A program made the position numbers and the translations under genes. The notes under the pieces were generated by a model. That model searched no databases and was not told the origin of the DNA. It saw nothing but the letters and a program-made list of their open reading frames with translations. A stretch of 56,633 nt of DNA, filler included, from Circinaria calcarea (taxonomy: Eukaryota), in the NCBI GenBank assembly GCA_051942165.1. It is 6 parts of 6 records of this genome, joined end to end, with 100 filler letters (N's around TTAATTAATTAA, not from the genome) between each part and the next. Parts side by side here need not be neighbours in the genome. Positions count along the whole stretch, not along the records: positions 9,501 to 18,882 come from JAVECS010000946.1; 5 more parts are not named here. One strand, 5' to 3'. Positions 1,049 to 33,074 of this stretch are shown here, piece after piece. Each line of letters starts with the position of its first letter. The stretch's first letter is position 1.

Positions 1049-2240
1049 ATGAGGCCACCGTTTCCATCACCCACACCCACCTGGCACAATGAAACTTATT
1101 CAGCCATCTCGCCTTCCCGCCCTGAACTGAGCGTTGCTGGCAAAACTGTCGTTGTAACCGGCGCGGTAGGATTCTCATTTTTTCCTTTCTAGAAGGAAGC
1201 CAAAGCAATAAGACAACTCCTGCTGATAGGGTCAAAAGGGAAGCGGCATCGGCCGTGAAACCGCTTTTGCTTTCGTGAATGCCGGCGCAAAGCAAATCGC
1301 CCTCCTTGGTCGAAACGAGCAAAACCTCATGGAAACGAAAAACCAGCTGTCGTCAAATAACACCAGCTGCTCAACCTACACCGTAGATGTTGTCGACGAG
1401 AAAGTGCTGAAGGACGTTGCCGCTGCCGTGGGGACCTGGGACGTTCTGATCCTCAGTGCCGGGTTTGTTTCGAGTCCCGCCTCGATCGCGGAGACAGCTG
1501 GGGATGACTGGTGGCAGAACTTCGAGGTGCGTTTTGTGCTCGTCCTTGGCATCCCCGACGGGATAGAATGCCAAGGTCTAGTCTCGGCAACCTGAACCGA
1601 CGCGGCTGGACTAACTTGCCCTCGCCCAGATTAACGTCAAGGGCACGATGACAACGGCAAGAGCCTTCCTACCCACCGCCAACCCATCTCATGCCGCGGT
1701 CCTCGGAGTGACGACTGGCGTGAGCGCTCTTCCGCCAGCGATGCTACCGGGGCTCTCGGCATATATTAGTTCGAAGCTGGCGCAGGTCAAGTTCCTAGAG
1801 TTTTTGGGAGCGGAGAATCCTAATCTCTTCGTGGCGAGTGTGCATCCGGGCATGGTTGACACGACCATCTTTCGAAAGAGCGGGGCACAGCCGGACGCTT
1901 TGCCAATGGACAAAGGTTCGTCATGTTCGGCTCTCGACCAGTTTTCGCTTCCCCATCCGCCTCCCAACCCCCCGCTTCTAAGTTTCTCTTCAATCTCAGT
2001 TCTACAGATGATCCTCTAGTATCTCGAATGATGGTCAACACTGACATTGGCCTGCTTACAGTCCAACTTCCCGCACACTTTATGGTATGGCTGGTCAGCC
2101 CTGAAGCCGCCTTCTTGAAAGGAAGATTGGTATGGGCGAACTGGGACGTTGACGAGCTGAAGTCACAGGCTCAGGAAATCCAGTCCGGACAGCAGATGAC
2201 GGCTGGGATTGTGGGCTGGCCGTACCCACATGTGGGTTAA
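1049..2240 (+). CDS. Short-chain dehydrogenase/reductase (SDR), 4 exons
   Basis: MRPPFPSPTPTWHNETY...GKTVVVTGA|GSGIG (Rossmann motif split by an intron), catalytic YxxxK (AYISSK), VHPGMVDT, and C-terminal WLVSPEAAFLKGRLVWANWDVDEL. GT-AG introns join the ORF pieces. Confidence 0.9.
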
Positions 2241-2465
2241 ACGATGAATGAGACATCATGGAATAAGGACCTACAATTAACGGACGGCATGGTAGCCAGT
2301 TCTCACGATCACTAATTAAATCCACTTGAGTCTACACAGATCCCCGCCAATCCGAACAAATGGTACACAGGAGGAGCAGCAAAGTCCTTGTTATCGAGCC
2401 TTCACGTCATAGGTCTCCAGGGAACCCGGCTGATATTAGTATCTACCGGCTACTTCTCCCCTTAT

Positions 2466-2503
2466 CCCATTCCATTCCATCCCATCCCATCCCATTCCCA
2501 TCC
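2466..2503. repeat. Imperfect (CCCAT/CCATT)n microsatellite
   Basis: cccattccattccatcccatcccatcccattcccatcc read directly. Confidence 0.7.
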
Positions 2504-2943
2504 TAGCCCTGTCCTCTCCTCCCTCCTTTCACTTCCCTCATAGTTAAAAATCCTACACACCTACCTCGCAATTTATACCTCGGGGAGAAATGGTACATCA
2601 TAGTTGTCGAAGACTGGAGCGGGAGCGCCGATATTTCCCTTGAAAATTTTTTTTATTTCGCAAGGAGCGGCCTCAATGTGCCGTCCCTGTCCCCGGACGC
2701 CGAACGTTCAATTCGTGGGCTCTTATAGTAGTTGATATTAACTGTGATGTGATTCTATTAAGGGTTTTTGAAAAGTGGGTACCTGGGGCTAAAAATAAAT
2801 ATTTTCCAAGTTTCCATTTTCGTTACATGTACCGCTTGCTTTTTCGCAGATGGATTGATTTAATTTGATTCCATTTCGTGTCTTATTTATTTTAAACCTT
2901 GGAGATATGCCATTAGATCCTTATAGCAGCCGCGCGAGGTAAG

Positions 2944-4391
2944 CTTCCCAACCTTTCGCTAGTCACGTCGCGTCGCGTCAAAGCGACCCATCAAGCCCCG
3001 TCGTCGGCAGTGGAACCGCGGATTTTCAGCTAAAGGTTAGTAGTATAGTAAGAGAAACTTCAGGAGATAGCATGCTAATAGTTTCATATCCAGCCCTGAT
3101 GCAATACGAAAATACAACACTCAAATACATCGATCAGCTGGACCGCTGTATCGAAGCCGATGCCGTAGCACACAGATTTTCAGACGCTACCGATCTTTTC
3201 TACTGGCTCGGCTTCGATACGATGGGAGAGTTCGTTTTTAATAAATCTTTCGGTATGCTGCAAAACCAACAATGGCATTACATAATTCTGTTACTACAGC
3301 GTGCACTGTCTTTGCTGGGTCCATTTAGTCCGGCTCCATGGCTTGTGCAGGTGGGCTTCAAGCTATTGCCCCGAGTTGGTATCTTAAGAGACTGGTTTGA
3401 TATGGTTGCCTGGTGCGAGAAACAAATGCGGGAAAGAATTGAGGTAATTCCTCATGCCCTGTACTCATCCCACCGAGGTGTTCTGAAGTTTTTTTTCAGG
3501 CACCCAATGACAATATACGAGAGCCAGACGTGGCATATTATTTAATCGAAGACGCCAAGTTAAACGGATTCTCGAAAACAGATTGGATGTGGCTAAACGG
3601 AGACAGCCTACTGGTAATAGTAGCGGGAAGGTAAAAACTGTATATTATGTCCCCCCGGGTAAGCTTTTTTTTGGCTTACTTGTCATATATATTCGCAGCC
3701 AACCCACCGCGTCTGCCCTCGTGGGTATTTTCTACGAGCTGGCACGAAATCCCGATCACGCGCAAAAGATATACGATGAGGTTCAAAGCCTGGACGTGCA
3801 TGACGTGAAGCTTTTGTCGAAGCTTCCGCACCTCGATGGCTGTATCGCCGAGGCATTGCGCTTATATCCTGCCCTTCCTACCGGCGGTAACAGGAAAACA
3901 CCAGAGCATGGCGTTATGATCGGGGGAAGATATATCCCCCCGTATACGACGATTGTGGCTCCCCGCTTTTCGATCTCACGCCGTAAATGTTTTCTGGTGC
4001 CCATTGTAAATTACAAATCTAACAGATATTCTAGGAGAAGATTGCTTTGAGCGAGGTCGTGATTTCATTCCCGAGCGGTGGTATCAAAATCCAGAAATGG
4101 TCCGGAACAAGGCTGCTTACACTCCATTCGGCACAGGTTAGATCTCCCTCAATTTTTTTTTTCCGATAAGCTTTCATATTTGACTGGTTGTTTTTAGGTC
4201 ATCAAAGTTGTCTTGGACGCTTTCTGGCGTTGGACAATATGAGGCTCGTTACAGCAAGACTGGTTAAGAAGTATTATATAAGTTTTGCACCAGGCGAATC
4301 GGCCGATCGCGTAGTAAGCGACTTGAAAGATCAATTCACTTCGAACCCTGGCCGATTACGCCTAGTGTTCAGGCTGAGGGAGAAATTCTAG
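2944..4391 (+). pseudogene. Cytochrome P450, N-terminally truncated and frameshifted (probable pseudogene)
   Basis: Downstream exons splice in frame: RRRQWNRGFSAK|AL, FDTMGEFVF, I-helix AGSQPT, EALR (ExxR), PERW, heme motif PFGTGHQSCLG. Upstream, LPNLSLVTSR..KATH needs a 1-nt shift near 2992 to join KPRRRQW. No membrane-anchor exon is visible 5' of about 2940. Confidence 0.7.
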
Positions 4392-4558: not shown

Positions 4559-6772
4559 TTACGGCAACGCCATAAACACCGACAACATCTTCTGATAGTT
4601 CGGCGTCCCCAACCCCGTCACCGGGTCCCAGCCCGTCACAGCGGTAAAGCCTGGGGTGCCGCACCCCTGATTCCCACCGGACGTGATATCGTTCAGCATG
4701 CTTGGGTTGGCATAAAGCGTTGGATTCAAGAAGCCCACCGCGCTCTTTCCGCCGTTAACACGCTGTTCGTTGATGAGCGTGATGATGCTGCCAAGGGTCG
4801 GCGAGGAAGCCGAAGTGCCGTAGATCAGACTGATGGTGCCGTCCACAGCCACTACATAGTTGGCGCCGTTGGCGGAGATGTCCGGGTACCCGCGGACGGT
4901 CTGAGAATTGTTATACTGAGTGGCGGTGTAGGCGGGCTGGTGATTGGTAAAGTATGCTTTAACGGCCGAGGATTGGTACGAGGGCAAGGGAAAGACATTG
5001 CTGAACCCGCCACCGGAGTAAATGACGGTTTCGCAGGCTTCCTCGGGGGCTGTCACGCTGGCACCGGGAACGATTTGGGTGGCTCCCACCGATGTAACGT
5101 AGGGGCAGGTTCCAGGGAAGGAAGGGTTGAAGGTGCCTGTGGCACCGCTGTTGTAGGTACCGCCTGCGCATTTGGCTTTGGTGCAGCATTGACCACCATT
5201 GCCGGCAACGCCGTAATCGCCAGAGGAGTATAGAACACTGACACCAGCCTTCATGTACGGTAAGCATATAAATTTCAACCATCAGTTACTGTCAGACTAC
5301 TTACCAAGCCTAGTTTCATGTACTCGTAGCACTGACGTTGTTCATAGGCAGCACTCAAGTCCGCCTCATTATACCCGTATGAAGTGGAGATAACAGACGC
5401 AGGAGCATATCTGCCACAGTCCTTGCTTTTATACCCACCGGGGCTAGGATCAGGATAGGGAGAATCACTACCGTGGTGTCAGCCTATATCGTTGCTCTAC
5501 GGTAGTCTCACCAATCTACTTACTAGACTGCGCTGTCCCCACCCAAGTATGTACAGTAAGAAGCGTCCAATGCGTCGAGGAAGTTGTTAAAGGAAGCACT
5601 CTCAACCAGATCACCGGTTTGATACAGCGTTACCTTTTGAGGGTATACTAAAGGAGTTGTATATTTAGCCGCCAAAAAGGTCAAACAGTTGAAGTTCTCA
5701 AAATGGTAGTGCCGCTAGATGGACGTACCTAGTGCGATTGCATACTCCAAGTCAAGATCCGATTCTCCGTTGTTACTGAAGCTCTGGGTGGTTGTCTGAG
5801 CCACACCGCCATCGATAGAGGCGAAGATAGGTGCTGTTCCTGAGGGAATCTCACGGGCCAAGTTTGAGTAGAACAGGTTGAGGTCAGGCTGCAAAAATGC
5901 CTGTGGTGTGTATTCGACGATACCATATGAGGACTTGGCCAAAGTGCCGTTGGGAAAGTTGTACAGCGCGCGTAGACAGTCAGGCGTGATGTATTGGTTG
6001 CAATTTGCAAGGGTATACGAGACAAGGGGTGAAGCGGCATTGGGACTCGCAATCACTCTGCCCTTCTTCGGTTGCCAGGCGGTGTTGTCTGGGCTTCCAG
6101 GCTGCAAAAAAGAAGTATCACGCTTCACTTTGTCTTGACTCGGATCTGACACGATCTTGGTATCGAAATGGACTGTGGGCATAATCATGTCAACGTGCTG
6201 TCGAAGCGCCTGGGGAACGCTATATTCATCGCAGGCGAGATGGCCTTGACCAGATCCTTCATGTGCATAGTACTTGTATTTTGTATGCAACAGAGATTCG
6301 ACTTCGGCGATGCTGGCATTAAAGTGTAGCCAATTCCTTCCGTGGGTAAGAGACACGCGTGATGGGTCAATGCCAGATGCTGTGAGCCATGTTCGGATAG
6401 CATCAACCGATTCTGCAGAGGGTGCAAAGGTTTCGGCAATCTATCCATATGTCAGTAAAGGTAGGAGAGGGTACTATGATTCCAATCCAAGTATGGACAT
6501 GGCAATACCTGTTCGGCAGTCCAATGTTTTCCGTAGTTCTCGCTTGATGGGTCAGAGATATCCATTAGGAAATCATGACCCTTGTCGAGGTTATTTTGCG
6601 TAATGCCTATGCGAACGGGAAGTGTGATACGTCCGTCGGGCTTAATGCGGGCAACCTCAGACCAACTGGAAGAGCTACTACGCCTCTCGTGAACCACATG
6701 AGGAACGGAAGCGGGTAGAGCTACAGTACAAACAGCAAGGGCACCAATAACGGTAACGAAGGAGAACCTCAT
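4559..6772 (-). CDS. Secreted S53 serine-carboxyl peptidase (sedolisin / tripeptidyl-peptidase-like), multi-exon
   Basis: Signal peptide MRFSFVTVIGALAVCTVA, prodomain HVVHERR...ISDPSSENYGKHW, catalytic GESDLD, oxyanion SSGDYG, nucleophile GTSASSP, Ca-site WDPVTGLGTP. Confidence 0.95.
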
Positions 6773-9400
6773 CTTCAGGGTTGCAGCAGAATAGTCAAAG
6801 GCAAGGATGGCTGGGAGACAACGTTCTTCAAAGGGGAGATGGCCAGTTCATATATTCTTGCCCGGTAAGGTGAAGGACTGCCAGGAAGCTGCGGAGACCA
6901 CACCTGGAAGAGCCAAATCCTCCGTGGACACTGACTGCATCCTGGACAAGCGACCACCGCCCCATGGGATCTTGGGGAAGCAATAGGAAGGTCAGCAGGA
7001 AGTGTTGGAAGGTGTTGGAGCTTCGGCCGATCTCCACAAGCCAGTGCGGTAGGGCGATCGAATGGACATGTGTTCTGAAAGGAAGGAGGCCCGTTGAGTC
7101 AACCCCATGCGGGTGTACCTTGAGGGAAACGGGTAGGGAGATCCTTAGCAAACCAATCTCGAATAACGGGCATTCACACGAAAAAGGTGTCTTCACAAAC
7201 GAAGGGGTGGGATCAGATCAGGCACACAACGCAATCATTCGGTGGGTGGGTGATATTGACCGAAACGGTTAGTCAAAAATTGGGCTTGCTGCATGAATGA
7301 TAGTAAACGATGAATTAGGATTCGGGGACGGCGATGAGAAACGAAAAGTCCTTCCACTTTCACTTTGAAGCCCGACGCATAGATAGGCTCTGCAGGAAGA
7401 GGAAGCTGCCTCTTTCAGCTCATAGATGTTGTGATAACTCGGGGGTCGGCCAGAATAGATTACCGGAGCCGGAGAGGCGAGGCCGAAGATAAGACACTCG
7501 GTTCGCCTATCATCCTTTTGCTCTATGTTCCCGGGTTGGAGGGGCATTTCGGCTGGCTATCCGAGATCATGGACGGCTTTCCCTTGATCACAGTCATTGA
7601 ACGTTTGGGGGACTGTCCGATTGGTCGAGCTACTTGGGCCTGTGTTACCCCCCACCTTCCATCAGGTGTCTGCATCACAAGATGAAGGGAGGGCCAATCT
7701 CGTGGTCCGTAACTCGGTAGCATCGCATTTTGCAGGCTTTGGTCTGTATGGGGATGCAATGAACCATCATCAAGTGCGTCGGAAGATGGCTTTTTCCGCC
7801 GCTAGCGAGAGTTCGGACTCAGCTCCGTGTGGTGACTGACCTCGTTCTGGTGTCAATGACGTAACAGGTAAATGGAAGTAGAAGCGGGAGAGAGCGGGAG
7901 AGTGCGGGAGGTCCCGCTCGCTCGAAGCATCGCCCTGTGCCACCATCCTCCTGCGACTGTAATCGCCACCCTTCAGACCCTTCATGGACGTGTGCTGCCT
8001 CTCGCCGAGTGTCGTTAGGTTTCACCATAGAATTTGATATGTAGACCCGTGGGGTGTCTCGGATATTGTACGGGCTAGGGATTGGCCTCAGGGCCGTCTT
8101 TCACTAATGAATTCTCTCGGGCAGCATCTATCTTCTCCCACGCGTATCATTTCGGAATCCCAAGGGAGGACCAATTTCCCGGTATGGGGTTTCCTGGTAG
8201 CTGTCAAATAACCTCAACCACAGCGATTCAGGACATCCTCGAGTTCTATAGTCCGGATTTACTACAAGGATCCACGGACAGTGAGTGGTGCTTTCGGGAG
8301 TCTTTCCCCAAAAGTCATTTCACAGCGAACAGGAGCTTTAGAAGAACGGGTATGGGCGGAAAAGCTGGGAAAGGCTTGCAGCTTGAGCCTTTTTACAAGG
8401 ATCAATTAAAACTAACTATTACAGATAAGAGAACAATTTGAAGGCCTTGCAGAGTTTCTGACCATAGATGAAAAAAGCGACTCTAGCATTAGACCAAGAA
8501 TTAAAGAATGTTTCTAAAGCTACAATACAACCTCTAAGTCAAACGAAGATGACTGAGTCCACTGTTACGCAGGAACCTCTATCCGTTCTCGTACCGCAGA
8601 CCTGACAGAGAGTCCAGCATAAGCTTTACACCTTCATTTAGCCACCTCATACAATAGATCCTCGCAGGAATTGGACAGGTCCTCATTACGTAGCCTGGAG
8701 CCACAATGCCAAGGAAATCAAGAAAACCCTCCACCGCGCGGACATAAACAGTAAAGACGACACCGACTGGACCGCCCCCCACCTCGCCTGTACATCCGAG
8801 GACTCGTGTCGAAATGCGGACTCAGCATGTTCTCCGGCTTCGGCCGCCCACTCTACAACCGCTATAAATGGTATTCCGGGCGCGCTCCCTCCAGCCTAGG
8901 GAACAAAAACGAAATAACGCAGTTGCGGGGTGTAGGTTGAAATACTCCTTGCGCAGCGGGGCGGATCCGAACGCTAGCACGGGGAGGGGTGATTCCGCTG
9001 CACCCTTGCATTGAACGGCCAATAGCGGGTAAACCAAGACTGTGAGGGTGCTTGTGGAGGCGGGTGCGACTGTGTATACTGGTTCGGACCACTCACCATT
9101 TTGCTGAGCAAAGGATGGATCTGGGAGTAATCTCCCATCGGCAGTTCTTCTACGAGATCGTCTGGGACCGAGCGGGATGGAAGGGATCGAGGCGGATCAT
9201 AGGCGGGGTCAGTGAAGCAAGATGGATTGAAGGGGGAAGAGAGGGAATAAGAAAGCCAGAAAATCTTCAAGAAGGAGTAAAGTAGATTTTGGGATTTCCT
9301 TAACCTTTGTCAATTTTTCATAAAATTTAAATATAGAAAAGACTATCTATCGTACGGACTTCTTTCTACTCTTCTGGGAAAAAATAATCCTCATTCGAGT

Positions 9401-9500
9401 NNNNNNNNNNNNNNNNNNNNNNNNNNNNNNNNNNNNNNNNNNNNTTAATTAATTAANNNNNNNNNNNNNNNNNNNNNNNNNNNNNNNNNNNNNNNNNNNN
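9401..9500. other. Artificial contig-joining spacer (N44-TTAATTAATTAA-N44)
   Basis: Identical 100-nt spacer carrying stops in all six frames; occurs five times in the window. Confidence 0.98.
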
Positions 9501-10784: not shown

Positions 10785-12253
10785 CTACCCCTTATGCGCT
10801 TCGTCCGGTTGAATCTCTTTGTGCACTTTAATCGCCCCATCGCACCTTTCCAAATCCTGCAGCTCCACCTGCTCTACTCTCTCAGACTTGCATTGCGCGC
10901 TCAGTGTCGAGGCCTCGTCGCTGATCTTGCGAAACGCGACCGTGCTCGCCATGGCGTCCTGGCCGTGTTTCGCCCGGTACGGATTCGAATGGTCAGAGCG
11001 TTTGTTACTCCCCTCGGAGCCAACGCTACTGGCAAGACTGAAGACGCTGCGGATGGAGCCGAAAAGGGATTCGGGGGACATGCCCTGGAAGATTGGGCGG
11101 AGGAGGGGGAGGCAGGCGCAGACAACGGAGAGACAGCATTCAGGGACGGTCCAGTAAAAAAGGGGCGCTTCGTCATCTGAGCCGAGACGATTGATGACAT
11201 TAGCTTTCCTGCGTTGATTATCGGGGAGTACCACTCTTATTGGGCTTCTGCTGACCCCAGCGAAGAAACGTACAGGTGAGATCGTGATTTTTAGCTATCA
11301 GGGCACCGACTGTGAAAAACCTATGGCATTTGCCGATGCTGGTCGCGACGACTCTATATTCAAGATCAGCTTCTGCTACTTGTAATCTTGACTGGGTCTA
11401 ATAGATGTAGATTCTTCCACGAGAGGCGTATGAGACGTACATGACACCGAGCATGAAAATGCCTAGGACCGCAATCTTTTGTTTCGCTGCCATTTGCAAG
11501 CGCCACACAATTGGCCAGGGCATGGCCAAGACAATAACATCGAGTATGATAGTCGAGACCGCATAGTAATAGTTCACAGAATCACCAATACAGTGCTGTC
11601 GTTTACTTTGCTGGACCTCCCAAAGTTCGCTTGGAGGTACGCACTGGACCAGGTAGGTAAGGGTAAAGCCAATTCCCCACAACCCGTTTAACGTATACAT
11701 GAGGTATACCGGAATGCGAAAGGCGCGGTTCGTAAAGATTCGAGCGTAGAATAAAAGAATCGAAAATCGAGCGAGACAAACGGCTACCGTCACGATTGTT
11801 TGCGAAGCATAAGCCATCTAGAATCGCAGATGTCTCGTCAGCTCTCAGATGAAGTCTTTGGGATTTTCAACGTACCTTTTCCAATGCGGTAAGCTTAGGG
11901 CCCATTTCTGCGAATCCCGCACGATCCAGGGGCATGTGTTTGCCCAGATTAGCATGGATGGCTCCTGGAAAGTAACTATCAGTAAGACTGCATCATAATG
12001 ATAACACGGAAGATAGCAACCATAAAGCACATTTGCAGCATTCCCTATTGCGAAAAGCTGTTGATATCAGTCAAAGTACTCTATAAGCGGACGGGGAAAG
12101 AATGCAATGTACCAAAGCTACCAGAATAATCCAGTCATCAGCAGCGTATAACGTCTTATTGATCCGTCTGGCATAGAAACGTGCAATCACTGAGAGTAGG
12201 GCAAGAATGGGAAATATAGTACACAAAGCTAGAGCAGTGGAATCTACACCCAT
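10785..12253 (-). CDS. Pth11-like (fungal rhodopsin-domain) integral membrane protein, no CFEM domain, multi-exon
   Basis: MGVDSTALALCTIFPILALLSVIARFYARR..AADDWIILVAL; ARFSILLFYARIF; QCVPPSELW; STIILDVIVLAMPWPIVWRLQM..KQKIAVLGIFMLG; WTVPECCLSVVCACLPLLRP. These are the hallmark motifs of the family. Confidence 0.92.
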
Positions 12254-13777: not shown

Positions 13778-14010
13778 CTACTTTGGGTGTCTCCGGGTAT
13801 GCGCCCATCTCCAAATAGCAGCCTCGTCCTCATCAACAGTCGTGGTATTTGAGGTTGGGGTAGCTTCATCTGGTCAATAATAAGCATGGTTGGTTCTTTA
13901 CCGGGTTCAGTGCATCGTTAGAGTTGGTATTACATACCTCTCTTAATAATAACGGGCATGGTAGTTGCTTGCAAGAAGAAGAGCGAAAGCAGAATGAGCT
14001 TGGGATTCAT
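13778..14010 (-). CDS. Small secreted Kex2-type precursor-like peptide, 54 aa, 2 exons; candidate RiPP precursor
   Basis: Exon 1 14010-13938, intron 13937-13870 (GTATGT...CAG, 68 nt), exon 2 13869-13778 ending in TAG. Product: MNPKLILLSLFFLQATTMPVIIKR-DEATPTSNTTTVDEDEAAIWRWAHT-RR-HPK. Hydrophobic signal, KR and RR dibasic sites, acidic stretch before an aromatic motif. Lies divergent from a DUF3328 gene. Confidence 0.72.
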
Positions 14011-14885
14011 GGTGAAGCTAACGTCGAGCGATAACGAATTGAGATCAGTCAACCGAGATTTTTTTGGAATATGAAATTTCGAGGAAGTGTAGTAAAGGCT
14101 CGACTCGAATATGGGCAAGGTTGAAAGAAAGAACGAAACATGCTGGAAGCAAGGATCGGTTAATATACATCTTGACATCATGATATTCAACTTGTTTCGG
14201 ATTCTAATGACTCGTGCAACAGGACATGGGGCGACATCAAGGAACTAATTCGTCGTTTTTACATGCAGATCGCAACTCGGAGCACTCACAATTGAAGCTA
14301 CATGGAACGGCTTTTTCCAGGACCGCAACATATTCACCTATTGGTCTTGAATCTAGGCTTAAGGCTATGAAATCTGTCGCATGATTTTACTACCAGTCAT
14401 CTCAATTTACTACTGTGCCCTGACCCTTGAATTGAGCGATTTTTTAGCCATAGAAACAACCTTGCTCGGCGAAAACAGAGCATTAGTAGCCAAGGCCCAA
14501 TGGTTGGAGCAGGGACTTACCGGATATTGCCGTTGAACGGGAAGTTTTAAGGCACGGAAAGACCTGGGTGAGCAGTTAATTTGCATTAGGACCTTAATTT
14601 CTTAGACTAGAAATTGAGCTAGATTGCGGCATAGCAATCTCAGCCTCTCTATTTTTACAGCGATTACAGAAAATAAAAATATTTTACTCTTATTATTTTC
14701 TCTTCAGCTGTAAACATGGGTCAGAAACCCGATTTGAAAAAAGCGTCGAAGCAGGGATGAATTAAGAAGCGTTGGTGTGCCTCCTAGTTTTAGCTGCAAA
14801 GTTACTCCACTATTAGCTAATACCTTCTGAAAGCCGCTTTGCTCATTGTTCGTGTCCGGGGTTCCTATCTAGGTTCCAACTCGTC

Positions 14886-15713
14886 ATGTTTATGAGATAT
14901 TGGCACTCTGGACGTCATGTTTCCAAGATAAGGCGGTGCAATGCCTTTTCACCACTACCTTCCACCGAACTCGATTTCCATCAAGAAGAGCGTCCTCGGC
15001 TTTCTATTTATGGACGTATATTAATGCTTGCCTTCATGCTCTGTGTCGCTTCTGGCATTGCGGGGTTCATTGCTGGAAGATATTCTAGAGGCGGCAACTC
15101 ACTAAGTAAAGTCAAGCTTTTTCACATGCCGAGTTCAAGCTGGTTGATATTTTGTAGCTCCTGTTGGATCCATTCTTACCACTTTCGAACCCAATGCGTC
15201 ATTCTCAGCGACGACATCTGTAGACTCAGACAAGGCATGGCAGGAGCTTTCCCAGTGTAAGAACTATAAGGCCAGATATATAGTTCTAATAAATAGCTGA
15301 TTATTTGATATAGTAGGGCATGGCTTTATACTTCATCCTTTAATCGCATCTAATATTTCTGGATTCGCCGTTTTTCATCAACTGCATTGTCTGGTACTTA
15401 GCTCTTCGGATCTTACCTCAAACAACTACTGACTGAAACGAAGAATCGTCTCCGTCACGGCTACGACGCTGTCCTAAACCGGCCTGGTACTGATACATCG
15501 CTAGTGGGCCATCAGGAGCATCAAGGAGGGACTTCTCACATTACACATTGCTTTGACTATCTTCGGCAGTCTTTGCAGTGCGCGGCAGATACCAATGTTG
15601 AAACTGTTGATTTCGCGCTAGAAGGCGTGACTGGATGGCGTGTGAAGCGTGTATGTAGGGACTTCGAAGCGGTAAAGAAGTTTGCGGAAGAGTGGAGACC
15701 TAAAAACCACTAG
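14886..15713 (+). CDS. DUF3328 / UstYa-family oxidase no. 1, 4 exons
   Basis: N-terminal TM (ILMLAFMLCVASGIAGFIAG), DKAWQEL..GHGFI, first motif AVFHQLHCL (15376-15390), second motif HITHCFDYLRQSLQCAAD (15537-15551), then G-W...RVCRDFEAV. GT-AG introns keep the frame. Confidence 0.93.
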
Positions 15714-17685: not shown

Positions 17686-18882
17686 ATGGGGCAAGTCTCA
17701 GGTCTAACAAGTTCATTAATTGTACTCTCAATCTCCTATTACATATTTAGGCGTTTCAGAACAAGAAGGGCACGCTTAAGGCGAATGAAAGAGCTTGGAT
17801 GCAAATCGCCCCCCAGTTACCCTCACATAGATCCCATTCTTGGCCTTGATCTCTTCTTGGAAAATATCAACAACTTGAAGAAGCAGCGTTTCCTTGACAG
17901 CTTCAAAGCTCGCTTTGATAAGTATGGCCAAACATTTGGTGCAATTAGCATGGGCAGAACTACAATCTACACCAATGACCCCAAAAACTATCAGGCCGTC
18001 CATGCCTTAAAGTTCGCCGACTACGGTGTCCAGCCTCTGAGACGAGAGCCGACGCTTCCATTCCTTGGAGAAGGTGTGTTTACGATGGATGGGCCTTTCT
18101 GGGAACATTCTAGAGCTATAATTCGTCCTACTTTTACACGATCTAATGTTGCCAATTTGCCCGCCTTCGAAGTTCATTTTCGGAAGTTCCTTGATTTGAT
18201 CCCTGGAAATGGAGTAACAGTTGACCTGGAGCCTCTACTCTACAGACTGGTCAGTCCTCTTCTACGCTTTATTAAGATGCTGACTCAGATATCTCGCAAA
18301 GTTCGTCGATACATCGACGGAGTTCCTCTTCGGAGAATCCATGAACACTTTATCACCAGCAGCCTCACTCCAGACTCAGCAGTTTCTTGACGCTTTTCAT
18401 TATGCACAGCGTGGTATGGGCACCCGCATTCAGATGGGCAGATTTAGATTTCTACACCAGGACCGAAAATGGCGAGAAGCTATCAAGACCACACATGCGT
18501 TTGCCGACAAGTATGTAGACATAGCACTTGCGTACCGAGAAGAATATATTACCACAAAGAAAAGAAACGAGCCCGACAAAGATACTCTAATTGAAGACGA
18601 TGACGTGAATAACCGCTATGTTCTCTTGCAGGAAATCGCCAAAGAAACAGATAACCGCGTCGAACTTCGTAGCCAAGTCCTCCATGTCTTTCTGGCCGGC
18701 CACGACTCGACCGCCATAACTATCGGAAACGCCATCTTTCATCTTTGTCGGTACCCGGACAAATGGGAGAAGCTGCGCGCCGAAGTGATTGCCATGGGCG
18801 ATGCTCCACTTACGTTCGAGCATCTGAAGGAACTGCACTATCTACAACACATTGTGAAAGAAAGTAAAGCATCCCCCTATTG
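17686..18882 (+). CDS. Cytochrome P450, CYP52-clan-like; 3' end cut off by contig end
   Basis: N-terminal TM, PHIDPILGLD, PFLGEGVFTMDGPFWEHSRAIIRPTF, FVDTSTEFLFGES (after an intron), I-helix HVFLAGHDSTA, start of K-helix LQHIVKE. The heme motif lies beyond the contig end. Confidence 0.9.
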
Positions 18883-18982
18883 NNNNNNNNNNNNNNNNNN
18901 NNNNNNNNNNNNNNNNNNNNNNNNNNTTAATTAATTAANNNNNNNNNNNNNNNNNNNNNNNNNNNNNNNNNNNNNNNNNNNN
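18883..18982. other. Artificial contig-joining spacer
   Basis: N-run/TTAATTAATTAA/N-run. Confidence 0.98.
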
Positions 18983-19710
18983 GGGTTTTGGTGTGCTAAT
19001 GCCCGGGGGAAAAAGGGAAAGGGGGGGGGAGAGGCCTTACGCTGCCGAGGAGGTTGCGAGTGGCGCAGCGCCGAGGATGCTCGAGAAAAGGCTGGGGGTT
19101 GCCATGATAAGAGAGGGCTTTGGGGGGGAGATTATACCGTAGGATTTTTTTCCTGCCCGGATGACAGTGATGCACCTATATGAATGCGTGCGGTGAGAAT
19201 CGCCGACATTGAACTCCTCTCCCCAGCCAAGATGCTGCTCCATAGCCCTGCATCATGCAGTCAAGTCGGCAGGAAGCCATACTCGGGATCAAATGCTACT
19301 GCTGACACAAATGTCAAATATCTCCAAACGATGAGATAAAAAGTCCCCGAATCTCCTCTGCCTTCTCGATCAGGCCCCAACCTGAACCTCCTCACCGATG
19401 CATAATGCAAATAACCATGAAAAGAAGCCGAAGATGCAAAAGGGACGCAAGTGTTTCTCTGGGGTGGAATTTCGGCCGAATGTTCGGACACACCACCCCC
19501 CCACCCCTTTTTTTTCCCTCCGAAACTGACCACTACCCCGAAACTGACCTCCTCCCAAGAAAGGTCACCTCCGCCACCGAAACACCAGGCAAATTCCCCC
19601 TTTTTCCCTTTGGAGAGAAAGCTCCAAGTCGAGCATAATGTACATGTCTCTCGATGGAGTTTCTGGGGAACCTTCGACCCTCTTTTCTCCTGAATCCCCA
19701 CCCGTCCACC

Positions 19711-20982
19711 ATGTTTGGCTTCTTCCACTCGGAATTCTTTGACTTCGAATTGACCCGCCTGCTGGGGACGGCCCCCTTTGGCGGATGCGACATTGCCGAG
19801 TTCCTCGAGGCCGTGGGCCAGATCAAGAGGCACGATGCCGAGAGCTGGTACCGCGCTTGGAAGGAACAGGGAGAGCGGGTCGAGGAGATTGCCCGGGAGG
19901 CAGCCCGCGACGGCCATCCGATCTTTGCCCGAAGGGCCTTTTTGCGCTCTTCCAACTACTTTCGCGCCAGCCCTTATATGCTTCCGAGTTCGGACGAACG
20001 GGTCCTGCAGTGCGCGGAGAGGGCGGTGCGAGACTTCAGACAGGCGATCCCCTTCATGGAAGGGAAAGTGCTGGTGCTGGAGATCCCATACCAGGGCGGC
20101 ATTACCCTGCCCGGTTATCTCTACCTCCCGCCACCGGCTAAGCGCGTACGGGGTAAGATTCCGGTGATTGTCAACTGCGGAGGCGCGGATTCGACCCAGG
20201 AGGAGCTCTATTTCATGTATGGCGTTTCGGGCACGGAACTCGGCTACGCGGTGCTCACGTTCGAGGGACCGGGGCAGGGTCTGGTGCTGAAGAGAGACAA
20301 GGTCACCATGAGACCGGACTATGAGGTTGTGACCGGCCGGGTGTTGGATCATCTTTTCCATCTGGCCACCGTTTACCCGGACCTCGAGCTTGACCTGGAC
20401 CGCATCGCAGTGGCGGGAGCGTCGATGGGTGCCTATTACGCCCTGAGGGCGGCGACGGATCCCCGGATCAAGGCCTGTGTCGCCGTCGATCCCTTTTACA
20501 GTCTCTGGAGCCTGGCTCTCACCCGACTGCCTCAGTGGTACGCCCATCTCTGGCAGAGCGGCTGGATCTCCGAGGCATTCTTCAACTGGTCCGTCCGCAC
20601 GCACATGAGCGTCGACTTCCCCAGTCGCTGGGAATTCTCCTTGGGGTCGTGGATGATGGGGAGATCCACCCCCGGGGACACGCTCCGACGCTTCCAGGAC
20701 TTCTCCCTCGACATCGCCCAGGACGGCAAGATCTTGGACCGCGTCGACTGTCCCGTGCTGGTGACCGGTGCCAAACGCACCATCTATGCGTCGGCGGAGA
20801 CGAGTACGATTCAGATTTACAACTCACTCGTGCGGGTCCCGGAAAGCTGTAAGGAGGTCTGGATCCCGAACGAGACGGGCGGTGGCGGGCTGACGGCAAA
20901 GGTGGGAGCGTGGGGTCTTTTGTCGCAGCGGACTTTTCAATTCCTGGACAAGCATTTCAAAACGGAGCGTGAAAAACCTTAG
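19711..20982 (+). CDS. Intronless alpha/beta-fold hydrolase (2,6-dihydroxypseudooxynicotine-hydrolase-like family)
   Basis: MFGFFHSEFFDFELTRLLG..PFGGCD, RSSNYFRAS, LPGYLY, GGADSTQEELY, FEGPGQG, nucleophile elbow GASMG (20416-20430). ATG 19711 preferred (CCACC context); the ORF extends to 19654. Confidence 0.88.
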   Translation: MFGFFHSEFFDFELTRLLGTAPFGGCDIAEFLEAVGQIKRHDAESWYRAWKEQGERVEEIAREAARDGHPIFARRAFLRSSNYFRASPYMLPSSDERVLQCAERAVRDFRQAIPFMEGKVLVLEIPYQGGITLPGYLYLPPPAKRVRGKIPVIVNCGGADSTQEELYFMYGVSGTELGYAVLTFEGPGQGLVLKRDKVTMRPDYEVVTGRVLDHLFHLATVYPDLELDLDRIAVAGASMGAYYALRAATDPRIKACVAVDPFYSLWSLALTRLPQWYAHLWQSGWISEAFFNWSVRTHMSVDFPSRWEFSLGSWMMGRSTPGDTLRRFQDFSLDIAQDGKILDRVDCPVLVTGAKRTIYASAETSTIQIYNSLVRVPESCKEVWIPNETGGGGLTAKVGAWGLLSQRTFQFLDKHFKTEREKP

Positions 20983-24039: not shown

Positions 24040-27000
24040 TTATTTGGGGCGCTTCACCTGTGATGAATCATTGAAATATGACGGACCCATGTCCCACCGC
24101 CGTTTCAGTCGACCAGGTTCGTATGTGCTTGCGACGGTATCTTGCCACATGCTTGGACTGACAAAAGAATGCCCAATGCTCGAGTAGCTCGAGGTCTGAG
24201 GAAGATTCATCTGTGGCATTTGCGACATGTTAACAGGCATGGGATAAAGGGACTGCTGCGTTGTGTCTTGTAGATGTGGCAAGTCATGCGAGCTGGTGTT
24301 GGACGGTGTGTACATGGTTGGCGATGGTTGATTGATCGAGTTCGTGGGGACGGAGATGTTGCTGGACGGTGTTCCGAAAGCTGTATTCCATTGACTTGGA
24401 TGACGGTTAGCAGGTTTTCTTGGCATACTAACTTGACGCAACGAAATATTGACGGCATACTCAAAGATCCTGGTGGGATTCCACGCCAGACTACTCTCAT
24501 CGTCCAGATGGCTGCTTGGCATCCGCTGAAGGTGCCTCTGACCCGTCGACATCATCGCCAAAGACGCGGCTGCCGTCGAACCATCTTGGGAATCATCGTG
24601 ACCGGCGGAGATGGGCGGTGTGATTGGTGGAGCGTTGTACTGGACGTGCGAGCTCGGCTCATGCGCCGATGAGTAGCCCAAAGTCCGATCTTGGTAGTGG
24701 AGGTCAGCAGGTGGACTCGGTTGTAGGCGGGGCGCCGGGCTGCCGTATGGGAAGCTCGGCTTCAATTCAAACGGCTTCGTAATATCGGCCGAGAATGCCT
24801 GTCGGAGGGATTGAATCTGCATTTGCATCTCCTGCAACGGCCAGGCCGAAATGCAGTTTTCGAGAATCCGCATGTGGCGCTTAAAATATTCCTTCGCATC
24901 GGTATTGAAGTCGGGATCCGGCGACGTGATGGCCACCTCGAGTATGGTTAGCGGCCGAGACGGAGGGGTGTATTCATAGAATAGAGCTTTACCAGATGAA
25001 GCATGGTGCAAGTGAGAATGCAGTAGATGGCGAAGTTGATGCCTGTTGGAGATCAGCCGGATCGACGCATTCAATACGAGAATTACGAGCCTCACCTCGT
25101 TGCATGCAGAGAAGACCATTGACCCCAAAGCCTTGCACCAGGGCTTCCTGTATCCTGCACAGGCTCTTGGCAGACAGATAGCAGAGCGTCATATGCTGCT
25201 TCCAGCTACCGCCGGCCGCAAAGGTCGACGAACACATCAGCTGCGGGCGGTGAAGCATGATAATGCTTAGATGGTAGTAACAATTCACGTTGCCGACAAA
25301 GTGAGACGGCAGCCATGGAGCCGAGCCGTCCGGAGGATAGTGTATTACCATGTCCGAAGGAAGCTCTTCGCGCCACTTCAAGAAACAGGGATTGAGACTC
25401 ATTAAACCGGCATTGGCTCCCCATTCCTTTTGCTTCTTGATCTTCGCATATGTGTCGGTCAGCATTCGTACGTTACGGACCACCTTTACTAGATATGTGA
25501 ACTGCCACGAGACATGGTAGTCGGACTCTTCCACGCCTGGGGAGGGGGACTGTTGAATGCTGACATCCACGGTATCTGTATCGACACCCATATCGAACCG
25601 TCCTAGTCCCTGATCAGCCCCTGTCTGGGAAAAGAATCCGGGCTGTAAGAAATAGCATATTTTATATCTCATACCTTGTGGACCACCAACCATCATCTCG
25701 CAAATGTATATAGTTTGCCAAATTCTGGTTTTGACAAGACATTCAGTGGGGTCAGACCCGCAACTCCGGCCTTCTTTATGGTTCGCGTAATGATCATGAA
25801 GTTCCAAATCCTTAGCCATCGCAACCAAAGTCTTAATAGTCATCCATGAGCGAAAGTAATAACCTCTCTTCGGAGCCGACTCTCGTGCTTTCAACAAAAT
25901 GAGAAGAGCTTGAATCGTGCTTAATCGGGGTACGTCCATGAAACAATCCTCATGCTCTAATGGGTGTAAGTATTAGGTCATCTTAGGCACTCGTTTTGTT
26001 ATTGCACTTACTTGAAGCAAGCGCTAACCATTGTGCACCTTGGGCTGGATCGTTGGACATTCGCCCGGCGCAAGCAAATATTACCTCTAAAAGAAGTGGT
26101 GAAATCTTCCCTCGATCTGTTTGCCACTGTTTATAGAAGTAAGGCTTACTTATCACTGGTACGTAAGGATGGATTTCAGTAAAAAATGTATCAAAGTATT
26201 CTGCAACCTGTTCATCCGAAGGCATAAGCTCTGGAGGGATCCGCACAATAGCACCGGAGCCAGATGTCACAGTTGGCAATGTAACTTCGGAATCTTCAAA
26301 GGCGGCTTCTCCAGCAAGAGTGGTTTTCTGTTGGAAGATGTATGGGGCTTTGTATAATTAGCCAGATCCACCAAACAGAATCTAGAGTATGCCAGCGCTC
26401 ACCGATTCCAGTCTCGTCGATCTTGAGTTCGCCTAGTACTTCGTGAAGGTTTGCCGCCGAGACTTGATCACCGGTCCATGGATCACTGCCGTCGGCTATC
26501 TGAATCGGGTGAACACTTGGCACTTGGAAGCTAGCTTGACGATGAAAGGACAGTCCACTTGCTGGCATCTGCATTGCCGACATGTTATCGTATCCAAGTG
26601 CTTGCTGATTCTCTATCTTCTCTGGATATGGGGGCTGATTATAGGTTGCGAAACCACCGTGATACGACGGCGCTTGAGATGCGCTGATCAAGTCTGGGCC
26701 ACTTCCCATCTGGTACATATTTTGGCCGCCTGTGGGTTGAGAAAATTCCTCGTCTCCACTGCCGCCACTAGAGTTATCGAAATCCAAGACCCTTTCGAGT
26801 CCCGAGACGTTACTTCCACTGGCCTGACTGCGGTTATAGTTTACTGTCGGCGGTACACAGTGTAACTTTAGCCTCACACAGGCAGCGCAAGGCCAAGCGT
26901 TAGTCGTTGCTGCATCGCACTTGATCTTTCGTCTTCGGCAACCTTCGCAAGCTCTCATGACTGTGCGACTCGTTAGACCGGGAGAGTTCAGACGTCAAAG

Positions 27001-28350: not shown

Positions 28351-28450
28351 NNNNNNNNNNNNNNNNNNNNNNNNNNNNNNNNNNNNNNNNNNNNTTAATT
28401 AATTAANNNNNNNNNNNNNNNNNNNNNNNNNNNNNNNNNNNNNNNNNNNN
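28351..28450. other. Artificial contig-joining spacer
   Basis: N-run/TTAATTAATTAA/N-run. Confidence 0.98.
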
Positions 28451-28613: not shown

Positions 28614-28745
28614 TGATGCATGCTAGATCAGCCAAGTCTATCTATTCTATAATTCCTAGTTCCAGCAATCTCGTTGATGCATGCTAGATCAGCCAAGTCT
28701 ATCTATTCTATAATTCCCAGTTCCAGCAATCTCGTTGATGCATGC
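28614..28745. repeat. Direct tandem duplication of a 61-bp unit (two copies plus 10 bp)
   Basis: tgatgcatgctagatcagccaagtctatctattctataattcc[t/c]agttccagcaatctcgt at 28614 and 28675, one mismatch; partial third copy at 28736. Confidence 0.95.
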
Positions 28746-29086: not shown

Positions 29087-30426
29087 TGTGGAAGGGCGGA
29101 CCGGGGTTGGAGTGGTTTGGGGGAGAGAAACGTGGTGACTTGAGACCATCGACGTATTCGGAGTTTTAGGAGTTTGTCGATATGGCAAGAGGAGGAGAAG
29201 TCGGCACCGAAGCAGTGTGATAGCGAGCGGATATCGTGAGTTATGGATATGTATTTAGACAACGAGCGTGGAATGGTGGATGCGAATGAACATATGAGGA
29301 GGAAAAGGAGGCAAAACGGTTTGCAAGATGCAGCATGATATACTGCTGCCTGCTGGATCTGTGTGTCATTCTGATTGAATGATACCGCGATGAGTCCTAG
29401 ACTGTAGCAAGAATCATCTGTCAGAAGATACTTTCGAAGTTATATCGAGAGATTGCCGGCTAAGCATATGCTTCATAATACGGGTTGAATAGGAAGCCCA
29501 ACCGCCTCCCAATATGTGGCAGAATCGTAAGTTTGCTTCCGGCTGTAGAGTCATGGAACAAGACAGAGATCTTCTTTGGGAGAGGCTTCACCGCTATGAC
29601 TCTTCGGGTGCGCCACATTCAGGCAGCATCGGGCTACCGGGGTAGATCACCAATCAGTGGTCTTCAGGTATCCATGATTTGTAATACCCGCCAGAGACAG
29701 TACTCCTATAAGAGAGTAGACACACCCCTTGCTTAGACCGGAACACAGCCTCATGAATTATAAGTACACTGAAAAAAACTTGAAAGGTCATCCCCGTATA
29801 GTGTGGAGTTAATGGAGATATAGACAGTCCAGCTCTTCCTTATACTGCAACGACAAGAAGAACTATAAAGTTGCCACCAAAAAGCAGGAAGAGACCCCAT
29901 TCAGTCATGCTGATCGGTTGAACGGGGTCAGCCGGCATCGCGGGATCATTCACTGTTTTCAAGCTATATCAGTCGAGAGATATAACTCTCAGCGACATAC
30001 ATAGACAATTCATTTTAGGTCAAATTTTCCAGTAGAGGGAAATATTGCCTACATACTACAGGAAAGATAAAATTTGCCACTTTGAAGTCGATTTAGGACT
30101 GATTGATAACCGTTTTGGGACTAGTGCCAATTAGCCTCTATCGAAAATCTCTTCGATGCCCCATGTCATTTGTTTCCTCCATCCTTTTATCTGCACTCCT
30201 TTAACTTCCTTCATATATTTTATTATTAGTCTTCGGGTTCTATACGGATTGGCCTTCTTTGAAATATTCGGTACTTGATTGGTTCCCCGGGCTTCGAGAA
30301 TCTTGATTTACACTCATCATGTGTTCGTTGCCAGACCCCTTTACTAAGCGTCTTGTACTTTATACAGTCAGCTTTTAGTGTCCTGTTATTCTCATCCATC
30401 AACCTTTTGCGTGACTTTCTTTGGAG

Positions 30427-33074
30427 ATGAAGTCACGTATTTTATTCGTCGATGCATACGACTCCTTTACCAATAATATTATTTCTCTTCTGGAAACACG
30501 CCTCGATGTTGAGGTGACTCAGGTGAAGATTGACAGCAAGATCGACAACCTCGGAACTTTCTTGCGCCCATTTTCAGCCGTGATTGCTGGACCGGGTCCA
30601 GGCAATCCCACAAATGATGCCGATATCGGTCTGATCAGAGACCTCTGGAGGCTAGAAGGACCCGACCTATTGCCCGTTCTCGGTATATGCCTCGGACTTC
30701 AAAGCCTCGTTTTGGCCTTTGGAGGGACCGTCAAGCCATTGGTACAGCCACGACATGGTGTTGTGACTCTCGTGAAGTCTAGTGATAAATCTATCTTTAC
30801 GGGCATCGGCGACTTCTACCCTGTTCAGTACCACTCCCTCCATGCCTCCTTGGGACATTCGCATGCAGAACTCTCCAACTGTACCGAGGATTTATGGACA
30901 ATTACTCCTGCCTGCCCTGATCTTGAACCTCTTGCTTGGGACCTGCCATCTGGTGGCCTATATGACGGATGGGTTCAGGGCAACCCACAGAATCCATATC
31001 CCATCCTGATGGCTGTCAAGCATAGACTTAAACCATTCTTTGGGCTTCAATTCCATCCAGAATCCATCTGCTCCGATGCCAAGGCCCAGATGGTTATTGA
31101 ATCCTGGTGGAGTATGGTGAACAAGTGGAATGGAACACACTCGCGGACTCCCTTTGTCTTCGATTACAAGGTCAAGGCATGCCCTGCTAATAGCGCCTAT
31201 GCACCTTATACAACAGAAGAAGCCTTGTGTCTCCCGCAGATGTTGAAAAAGTATCCTGATCTCGCAGGCCTTGATAGCCCCAGAATATCTGCTTCGTCTT
31301 CTGTTTTCCATTCGACACCGTCATCGTCTCGATCGCCCTCTCCGTCTTTTACTTCTTCTTCGTCGGCGCCGACGTCGCCCCGGTTAGCCAAGATTGGAAG
31401 CCAAGAGTATGGGGTTACGTCAAAGGCTTGTACCCTTGGCAACCTTGATATTCCTGAAATTTGCAGTCTACTTGGACTATGCTCGGATGAAGTCATTTTG
31501 CTTGACTCGGAAATGCGGCAAACGCCCGAGGTAGCCACTCACAGCATTGTTGGTATAGTAACAGCCGATACTATGAGGCTTGAGTATACTGTTGGTACTC
31601 ATTTCGTACGACTGATCCACAGTAGAAGGAGTGCTGTTGAGGACCTTCGATACCATGGTGGGACCATTTTCACTTATCTTAAAGAGTTTATAGGAAAGCA
31701 CGCAGCCAAAGGCTCGTGTGCAGAGATACCATTCTGGGGCGGCTTGATGGGATACATTACATACGAAGCGTGCTTAGAGACCATTGACATTCCCCAAGAT
31801 GGAGATTCTAGCAATCGACCGGATATCTGTTTTGCTTTTATCGAGCGAAGCATAGTCATAGACCACCAACGTGGACTTGTACACATTCAGAGCATAAAGT
31901 CTGATGATCACGTTTGGGTTATGGAAAGCTACGACGTGTTAAATAATTCTAATAAAGGTTATTGCAAATGTACAGGTGGTTCCGAATCCATAAACCAGGA
32001 CGATATGATAGTAAGGGACCTTATTACCTGTTTAAAACTGAACTAATCCAACTGCTACAGGCCAGTACCTACCTCTCATCCCCTATAAGCGTCAATCATC
32101 CAATAGAATCAAAGTACAAAGCCAAGATCCGTGCTTGCCAGCAGTCTGTTCGCGCTGGCAACTCTTACGAGCTCTGCCTCACTAATCAGGTTTCGGTACA
32201 GGTCAATTCTCCCCTCGCTTCAACGTCATGGCCCCTTTATCTTCGACTTCGACGCCTCAATCCTGCTCCTTTTGCCGCATACCTTCGCCTTGGCCCGCTA
32301 ACACTCCTCTCTACCTCCCCCGAGCGTTTCATGTCTTGGAGTCGTCCAACTTCAAGTAATTCTCACCAATCCGAAATCGTTTGTCAGTTCCGTCCAATCA
32401 AAGGGACAGTGCGCAAGCAGCAGATCATGAGCTCTAATGCTACACACACTGTGACTCTCGCCGAAGCTATAGCACTATTATCAACCACGAAAGAGCGAGC
32501 AGAAAATCTGATGATAGTGGATCTCATACGCCATGATCTTCATGGTGTTGTCGGATCAGGTAACGTTCACGTAAGAAAATTAATGGTGGTTGAGGAGTAT
32601 GAAAGTTTGTTTCAGCTCGTGAGCGTCATCGAAGGCACATTGCAGTCGCCATCGTCCCATTTGGAGATAGGTAGAAATAATAAAAGAGAGAAAAAAGATA
32701 TGGAAGAGGCTAAGACAGGCATTGACGTGCTCGCAGCAAGCCTCCCTCCTGGCAGTATGACAGGAGCTCCGAAGCGCCGATCATGTCAACTTCTCCGTGC
32801 CATTGAAGATTATAAGCCTAGGTCTGTCTACAGCGGGGTCCTGGGTTATATGTGTGTTGGAGGCCGAGGTGATTTCTCAGTCGTGATACGAAGTATGTTC
32901 AAGTGGGATACCGAAGGTCAACAGCATGCGAGTCGGCGTTGTATGGGAGACACATGGCAAATAGGTGCTGGAGGCGCAGTGACATCCTTGAGCACTGAAG
33001 AAGGGGAGTGGGAGGAGATGAAGACAAAAGTGATGAGTACAATGGGCCTGTTTACGGGCTCTCAGCCCAGTTGA
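30427..33074 (+). CDS. ABZ1: Aminodeoxychorismate (PABA) synthase, fused glutamine amidotransferase + chorismate-binding domains
   Basis: ILFVDAYDSFTNN, GPGPGNP, GICLG (catalytic Cys), YHSL, QFHPES; then PFWGGLMGY, GNSYELCLT, KERAENLMIVDLIRHDL, SLPPGSMTGAPK. Intron 32011-32060 (GTAAGG...CTAAT...CAG) joins the two ORFs. Confidence 0.95.

Follow-up and report, generated by a model that had tools for sequence, protein, structure and literature searches.

A probable single-core precursor gene beside a convergent pair of UstYa genes in Circinaria calcarea

Gene content of the locus

The window, by which we mean the whole stretch of 56,633 nucleotides of Circinaria calcarea DNA that was analysed, carries a small two-exon gene beside a pair of UstYa/DUF3328 genes. 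The features at this locus, as predicted from the sequence, are the following:

10785 to 12253, minus strand: gene for a membrane protein with a fungal-rhodopsin domain (PF20684, E 1.5e-32), downstream of the putative precursor gene and on the same strand
13778 to 14010, minus strand: putative precursor gene of 54 codons plus stop (exon 1 at 14010-13938, intron at 13937-13870, exon 2 at 13869-13778)
13790 to 13795, minus strand: candidate dibasic site Arg50-Arg51, preceding the C-terminal HPK; not conserved in the single-core relatives
13805 to 13834, minus strand: family motif DEDEAAIWRW (residues 37-46), an acidic recognition-like run and core
13870 to 13937, minus strand: intron of 68 nt, GT-AG, phase 1, reading GTATGT...CTAAC...CAG and carrying the stop of the unspliced ORF
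13939 to 13944, minus strand: candidate Kex2 site Lys23-Arg24 at the end of exon 1; relatives carry KR before their units
13960 to 14010, minus strand: signal-peptide-like N-terminus, MNPKLILLSLFFLQATT, followed by MPV
14011 to 14885, no strand: intergenic region of 875 bp common to the putative precursor gene and UstYa gene A, which diverge from it
14886 to 15713, plus strand: UstYa/DUF3328 gene A, with exons 14886-15105, 15158-15256, 15314-15393 and 15444-15713, encoding 221 aa
15802 to 16987, minus strand: UstYa/DUF3328 gene B, convergent with A (PF11807, E 1.5e-12), with motifs HELHC and HIDHC
17686 to 19250, plus strand: cytochrome P450 gene (PF00067), cut by N at 18883-18982 and with an approximate end; a possible tailoring enzyme
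19654 to 20982, plus strand: FrsA-like alpha/beta hydrolase gene (PF06500, E 3.7e-12); a possible accessory

The product of gene A is membrane-anchored and carries HQLHC and HITHC motifs, and PF11807 was found in all 14 homologues listed for its last exon. In gene B the HIDHC motif appears after removal of a 70-nt intron; three introns were placed in this gene, the first junction being uncertain. The models of both genes are open and between them keep all four HxxHC motifs; the genes look intact and lie 0.9-3 kb from the putative precursor gene. When 43 ORFs of the window were scanned against Pfam, a scan outside which shorter exons fall, no PKS, NRPS, tyrosinase or methyltransferase was seen. 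Neither a tandem repeat between 7910 and 21666 nor an ORF with KR repeats near the UstYa pair was found; if the pair acts on a clustered substrate peptide, that peptide is not of the repeat type.

Some other features of the window are recorded here for completeness. The N runs (9401-9500, 18883-18982, 28351-28450, 37782-37881 and 47212-47311) are paired 44-base runs recurring at intervals of about 9.48 kb. They have the look of masking and not of gaps in the assembly, and one pair cuts the P450 gene beside the cluster. A 61-bp tandem repeat of 2.2 copies, 98% matching, is present between genes at 28614-28745. Genes found within 1230-4050, 5715-6847, 24040-26994 and 30415-33074 include a short-chain dehydrogenase, a second P450, a sedolisin-type protease, a Zn2Cys6 transcription factor and a PABA-synthase-like fusion (GATase plus chorismate-binding).

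Structure and splicing of the putative precursor gene

The gene begins with the ATG at 14010, and its first exon closes with ...AAG AGA G at 13938. Read without splicing, the frame from this ATG ends ...IIKRGM (ORF 13930..14181). An earlier note on this DNA had placed that stop inside a 68-nt GT-AG intron, and this is indeed where it lies, between the GTATGT donor at 13937 and the acceptor ...GACCAG ending at 13870; the coordinates and sequence given there for the 54-residue model were all correct when the DNA was read again. Joined in silico, the exons make 165 nt that run to the stop TAG at 13780-13778 and encode 54 residues, MNPKLILLSLFFLQATTMPVIIKR-DEATPTSNTTTVDEDEAAIWRWAHT-RR-HPK, in the order already proposed in that note: signal peptide, KR, acidic run, AIWRW, RR and HPK. 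The signal-like stretch scores 2.48 with a Kyte-Doolittle window heuristic, which is a heuristic score only, and has Lys in the n-region; its A-x-P-V end is similar to that of the relatives in the family alignment described below. The codons of the two Trp residues are at 13813-13811 (Trp44) and 13807-13805 (Trp46) on the minus strand, and Tyr is absent from the whole spliced model.

The splice of the 54-residue model is inferred from the sequence and from the relatives, and the choice of acceptor bears directly on whether a DEDEAAIWRW peptide is made at all. The only perfect CTAAC of the intron is 49 nt before the CAG, and an alternative AAG acceptor lies 23 nt past it, so that the AAG may be the one used. 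Its use would put the exons in a different frame and would leave an intron of 42 nt, which is shorter than the 49-68 nt found in six genes of the family. A second AAG acceptor (74-nt intron) keeps the frame and costs just Asp-Glu.

With one core, one KR and one RR, the gene does not have the repeats by which dikaritin and KEP precursors are recognised. The earlier note had said that there is only one core and that repeat-based mining would miss such a gene. We agree on both counts, the second because the published pipelines demand repeats, as described in the available text of two sources (PMC7329392, PMC12048977). The most likely product of the two-exon gene is the peptide from which a modified, secreted peptide is made.

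Relatives of the gene pair and a family of precursors

Using the last exon of gene A as a query, 14 UstYa proteins were listed, with identity of up to 59%, from a Lecanoromycetidae species, Cudoniella, Bacidia, Aspergillus and others. Eleven of the 14 were aligned with the gene A exon and 80 metagenome loci (L numbers below) were fetched with this alignment. A convergent A/B pair is present in 24 of the 80 loci, which make up five lineages with long flanks, of at least 5 kb on both sides (L001-L010; L011-L013; L022, L023 and L025-L028; L051; L076-L078), and five short contigs. Direct searches of the 80 loci with the 54-residue model (tblastn) and with the intergenic DNA (tblastx) gave nothing below E 0.1. 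A de novo scan found a two-exon gene in L012, divergent from gene A and ending ...KRSPRAEPEEDADEAIAYAWFTEETEGTA, and the remaining family genes were found by pattern and then by profile. The pattern was close to the one suggested in the earlier note, D-x-D-E-x(2,3)-[WY]-x-W near DUF3328 genes, and it is this broader pattern that brought the family to light.

In each of the five long-flank lineages a precursor of the family lies no more than 6 kb from the pair, and none was found in the five short contigs that have the pair (1.4-6.3 kb). The precursors of the five lineages are:

L001-L010: 5 cores, unit KREAADADDKVVYTWSLPEEK
L051: 3 cores, unit ...EDADDAVAYAWVVGPP...
L011/L012: 1 core, unit ...DADEAIAYAWFTEE...
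L077: 1 core, unit ...PDADDVVVYAWAQDAAE
L023 and L025-L028: 1 core, unit ...VRADADAMVASSWSSG..., found by the family profile

The proteins of the single-core relatives simply end, with no counterpart of the Arg-Arg. A remoter relative was seen at L015:3169-3500 (plus strand), having two units DADEAVVYPAKVDQSW and a phase-1 intron after the signal peptide; it has no Trp two residues past the Tyr and adjoins two A-type UstYa genes.

Profile searching of protein databases added 17 small proteins (P numbers below), two of them from lichen fungi, and the strict unit is present at least once in 16 of the 17. Two deviations show that the positions we call invariant are not absolute: P0024 has Tyr for the first Asp, and the first unit of P0031 is degenerate (ALYTSSLPEKR, with Ser for Trp). 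The splice models of the relatives are backed by database proteins, since P0029 (Pleopsidium flavum) reads ...QNSGIDAIK... over the junction predicted for the L012 model and P0021 (Acarospora aff. strigata) agrees with the L001 type. Units are repeated with KR between them, as in KEPs, in L001 (five units), L051 (three), P0032 (four) and others. Taken together, these genes form a precursor family with the unit D-x-D-[DE]-x3-(Tyr)-x-Trp, and the acidic run before the core, to which the earlier note had drawn attention, is the conserved part of it.

Two sets of candidates were set aside during these searches. A search with the 30 residues of exon 2 against 1.84 billion representative proteins gave no true relative, the two repeat proteins that were matched being unrelated on inspection. 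A 40-residue ORF, MASLLSL...AAEDH[DG]VV, scores 8-10 bits against the family profile and is present in seven loci (L033:9150, L035:16139, L043:7221, L046:6746, L048:16140, L052:6110 and L039:7379); it has a stop and no usable intron, and looks like the antisense of another gene.

Shared gene structure and synteny

Genes of the family are built alike in the window, L001, L012, L051, L077, L015 and L023: the signal-peptide exon (61-82 nt) is followed by an intron in phase 1 (49-68 nt) and this by the core exon. The first exons of the five long-flank lineages measure 70-82 nt, and a length of exactly 73 nt is shared by the window, L077 and L023. The phase-1 intron of the relatives (49-60 nt) is in the same place as the 68-nt intron of the window. 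The donors of the relatives include GTAAAA, GTGAGG and GTACAT, and the gene-model filter was relaxed to admit them in three of four relatives.

The position relative to the neighbouring genes is shared as well. Precursor and gene A diverge in the window, L001 and L012, with 1.35-1.53 kb separating the precursor ATG from the last exon of A; in L051, L077 and again the window, the rhodopsin-domain gene comes after the precursor on the same strand. A PF20684 rhodopsin-domain gene is near the UstYa pair in all six lineages, the window included (homologues at L001:17766-18170, L012:13810-14364, L023:7975-8313, L051:15656-16051 and L077:8804-9397). An O-methyltransferase gene (PF00891) is beside the pair in the three lineages with a Y-A-W core (L012:16308-16796, L051:12798-13352 and L077:5480-6268), and the Tyr is its possible substrate; the window (W-R-W), L001 (Y-T-W) and L023 (S-S-W) showed no such gene. 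A P450 gene is beside the pair only in the window (17686-19250) and L051 (6009-7661), the two being 36-40% identical, and each is flanked by an alpha/beta hydrolase gene, the two hydrolases being unrelated to each other. The FrsA-like hydrolase of the window had no homologue in the 80 metagenome loci at E 1e-5. Given its presence in only two of six lineages, the P450 is not the conserved enzyme of these clusters.

This linkage bears on whether the product could be a signalling peptide like alpha-pheromones or small secreted peptides, secreted without modification and only by position associated with UstYa genes. A signal peptide, dibasic sites and a short Trp-rich peptide would all suit such a role, and Kex2-processed pheromone precursors are described as common in fungi in the available text of PMC7329392. 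Against this, the family is linked to the UstYa pair in six of six lineages with enough flank (the window among them), whereas the pheromone-type KEPs described in the same text are, with three exceptions, without DUF3328 neighbours. The gene of the window also has a single unit, where alpha-factor-like precursors repeat the mature pheromone. We consider a signalling peptide of this kind very improbable.

Strength of the assignment to the family

The motif of the window aligns without gaps to those of the relatives (DEDEAAIWRW versus DADDKVVYTW, DADDAVAYAW, DADEAIAYAW, DADDVVVYAW and DADAMVASSW), the only invariant columns being the two Asp and the Trp that lies nine residues past the first Asp. 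Across the window and the 80 loci, which give 1.86 million residues in six-frame translation, the pattern D.D[DE]x3[YW]xW has 57 matches, all of them within precursor genes, against none in five shuffles; the Tyr position was widened to [YW] after the window had been seen, so this count is partly circular for the window.

Tests made with profiles that leave the window out were mixed. A full-length family HMM put the 54-residue model first among the 80 signal-peptide-like models of the window, with 6.3 bits and E 0.035, a score that would correspond to E of about 3 among the 7,536 models of the 80 loci. By profile score the peptide of the window is the most divergent member (6.3 bits), followed by L023 with 12.9 and the others with 38-225. 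In a 16-column leave-one-out unit HMM the window ORF scored -2.5 bits and ranked 550 of the 1062 matches listed among 2239 ORFs. BLASTP against P0029 gave 5/10 identities and E 0.024. A match with hhalign was discarded as support because it is circular, the window being a row of the alignment behind the profile. With these mixed results, sequence similarity by itself is weak, and the case for membership is carried by sequence, position, strand, exon length, intron phase and neighbours together.

The same combination has to be set against the possibility that the gene is a chance ORF or that another acceptor is used, in either case with no DEDEAAIWRW peptide. Besides the placing of the AAG acceptor mentioned above, this reading gains from the absence of the 54-residue protein from all of the protein collections searched and from the frequency of signal-peptide-like models, of which the filter used finds five in the 2.6-kb intergenic stretch. 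Only the 54-residue model among them has the family features. A chance ORF would also have to yield an in-frame phase-1 intron at the family position and D-x-D-E-x3-aromatic-x-W, and to do so next to the right gene pair, with the rhodopsin-domain gene downstream; from the 6.3-bit score, the chance estimate is about 0.002 for the intergenic region. We regard this possibility as quite improbable. Our conclusion, held with good confidence, is that the 54-residue gene is the precursor gene of the cluster, a divergent single-core member of the family although the resemblance is weak by sequence alone.

Core residues and possible chemistry

The second Trp of the core (Trp46) is kept throughout the family alignment and the first is not. 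The place of Trp44 is taken by Tyr in 30 of 30 units of the 17 database proteins and in the L001, L012, L051 and L077 lineages, and by Ser in the L023 lineage; the residue between this place and the conserved Trp is A, T, S or R. No other W-x-W member was found among the 17 database proteins or the 80 loci. The earlier note had taken the W-x-W spacing to suggest a Trp-based cross-link of three residues. As the first Trp place is variable, the W-x-W pair is not a conserved unit; WRW is not conserved in the syntenic homologues, an outcome that the same note had named as refuting its narrow WRW reading. A Trp-Trp cross-link as a conserved feature is thus not supported. The lack of Tyr had likewise been called unusual. 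It holds for all 54 residues, yet Tyr-free units are no rarity, making up 34.4% of the repeat units beside DUF3328 genes in one survey (PMC7329392, available text).

The missing Tyr, which the database units have without exception, means that the peptide of the window may be a poor substrate or none. It could belong to a real family gene that has become a decayed or orphaned precursor, with Trp for Tyr, whose product is no longer modified and is secreted as a linear peptide or not made. That the peptide is the most divergent member, and that no second W-x-W member turned up, are both in keeping with decay. On the other hand, there is no damage to the frame, the signal peptide, the canonical splice sites, the KR, the two Asp or the conserved Trp, and both UstYa genes retain open models with four HxxHC motifs. 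The L023 lineage is also Tyr-free, and its Ser form is kept in five loci, so Tyr is not indispensable to the family. A decayed precursor is unlikely on this balance.

If the peptide is modified, the chemistry may centre, by analogy, on the conserved Trp, with Tyr, Ser or Trp two residues upstream as its partner; all three residues carry an O-H or N-H group. The link in ustiloxin and phomopsin, Tyr1-Ile3, has the same i to i+2 spacing, and UstY/DUF3328 enzymes have a dicopper site and make O2-dependent cross-links (PMC7329392 and PMC12186524 respectively, available text). A specific version of this idea is that the UstYa pair joins the invariant Trp to the side chain two residues upstream, through Tyr-O, Ser-O or, here, the indole of a second Trp, which would give a three-residue Trp-Trp macrocycle. 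We put this forward tentatively and think it rather doubtful. Alternatively, the cross-link partner may be elsewhere, for instance an aliphatic residue three or four places upstream, as in plant peptides of the stephanotic-acid type.

Proposed pathway

We think it probable that the 54-residue gene supplies the precursor peptide for a small RiPP cluster that depends on UstYa enzymes and works along the following lines. The cluster would consist of the precursor, the convergent UstYa genes A and B, the rhodopsin-domain membrane protein and perhaps the P450 and the hydrolase. The signal peptide would take the precursor into the ER, where the acidic D-x-D-[DE] run would be the segment recognised by the membrane-anchored, lumenal UstYa oxidases. 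These would oxidise the core around the invariant Trp46, most likely making a side-chain macrocycle, in which, as our best guess, residue 44 would be bonded to Trp46 (i to i+2) through its heteroatom side chain (Tyr-OH, Ser-OH or, here, the Trp indole). Cleavage of the Kex2 type after KR24, and perhaps at RR51, followed by exopeptidase trimming would then release a short secreted peptide.

Comparison with known systems

The cluster is of a kind already known, the UstYa-dependent fungal RiPPs with secreted, Kex2-processed precursors. It resembles the ustiloxin and phomopsin systems (UstA, PhomA; UstYa/UstYb) in the signal peptide, the candidate dibasic Kex2 sites, the acidic residues before the core and the two UstYa-family genes next to the precursor. 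The spacing also agrees, being three residues in Y-A-I and Y-V-I (PMC7329392, available text) and in [Y/W/S]-x-W here. Unlike those systems, the window has one core instead of many repeats, no Tyr for an aryl-ether macrocycle, and Trp instead of Ile as the third residue. The five-gene definition of dikaritins (Ding, quoted in the available text of PMC12048977) includes a tyrosinase and a methyltransferase, which the 43 window ORFs did not yield, while the rhodopsin-domain gene is the constant neighbour here.

The nearest mechanistic model is asperipin-2a (AprA plus a single UstY-type enzyme), in which oxidative cyclisation is achieved by UstY alone, without a tyrosinase. Its enzyme is dicopper and O2-dependent and makes a Tyr-O to C-beta ether (PMC12186524, available text). 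It differs from the cluster of the window in having a repeated precursor with a Tyr-rich core, one UstY gene instead of a convergent pair, and no involvement of Trp.

The lichen UstY clans R1 and R2 are also similar, in that the available text of PMC12048977 describes UstY-type genes of lichen fungi with no repeat precursor found, and raises a single core peptide as one possibility for them. Neither layout matches that of the window: clan R1 has a tyrosinase, an O-methyltransferase between its two UstY genes and an FGE-sulfatase, and clan R2 has one UstY gene with GNAT acetyltransferases. No precursor sequence is given in that text.

Two further systems are analogous only. Plant burpitides, made by split BURP-domain copper cyclases (e.g. 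ArbA2/ArbB2), come from secreted precursors in which a recognition sequence directly precedes each short core; the cores are single or multiple, and the side-chain cross-links are copper- and O2-dependent and can involve Trp (PMC12186524, available text); these cyclases are an unrelated enzyme family from another kingdom, and no homology is claimed. The bacterial P450 cyptides and biarylitides contain a small cyclophane made by linking aromatic residues at positions two apart (PMC12288599, PMC12797325 and PMC13185096, available text). Their motifs are Y-x-W, W-W and Y-x-H, and a P450 gene adjoins the cluster of the window too; they differ in being bacterial and leader-dependent, with the P450 as sole cyclase.

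Implications for the family

In the literature searched, whose coverage leaves most subscription journals outside, we found no description of this precursor family or of its link to a convergent UstYa pair and a rhodopsin-domain gene, nor of coexisting one- to five-core forms or of Trp or Ser at the Tyr position in it. UstYa (DUF3328) clusters are often without a recognisable precursor because the mining tools look for Kex2-bounded repeats. Since precursors with one, two, three, four and five cores accompany one and the same enzyme pair, single-core precursors do exist, and gene structure together with a short acidic motif can serve to find them.

If the proposed Trp-Trp macrocycle were true, it would be a bond type undescribed for dicopper UstY enzymes in the literature found, and the family would represent a natural set in which the partner at a single position has been exchanged, with the gene of the window as the Trp end-member. 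The family is in any case a natural experiment, in which the place of the cross-linking Tyr of the ustiloxin type is held by Tyr, Ser or Trp and the Trp two residues on is kept.
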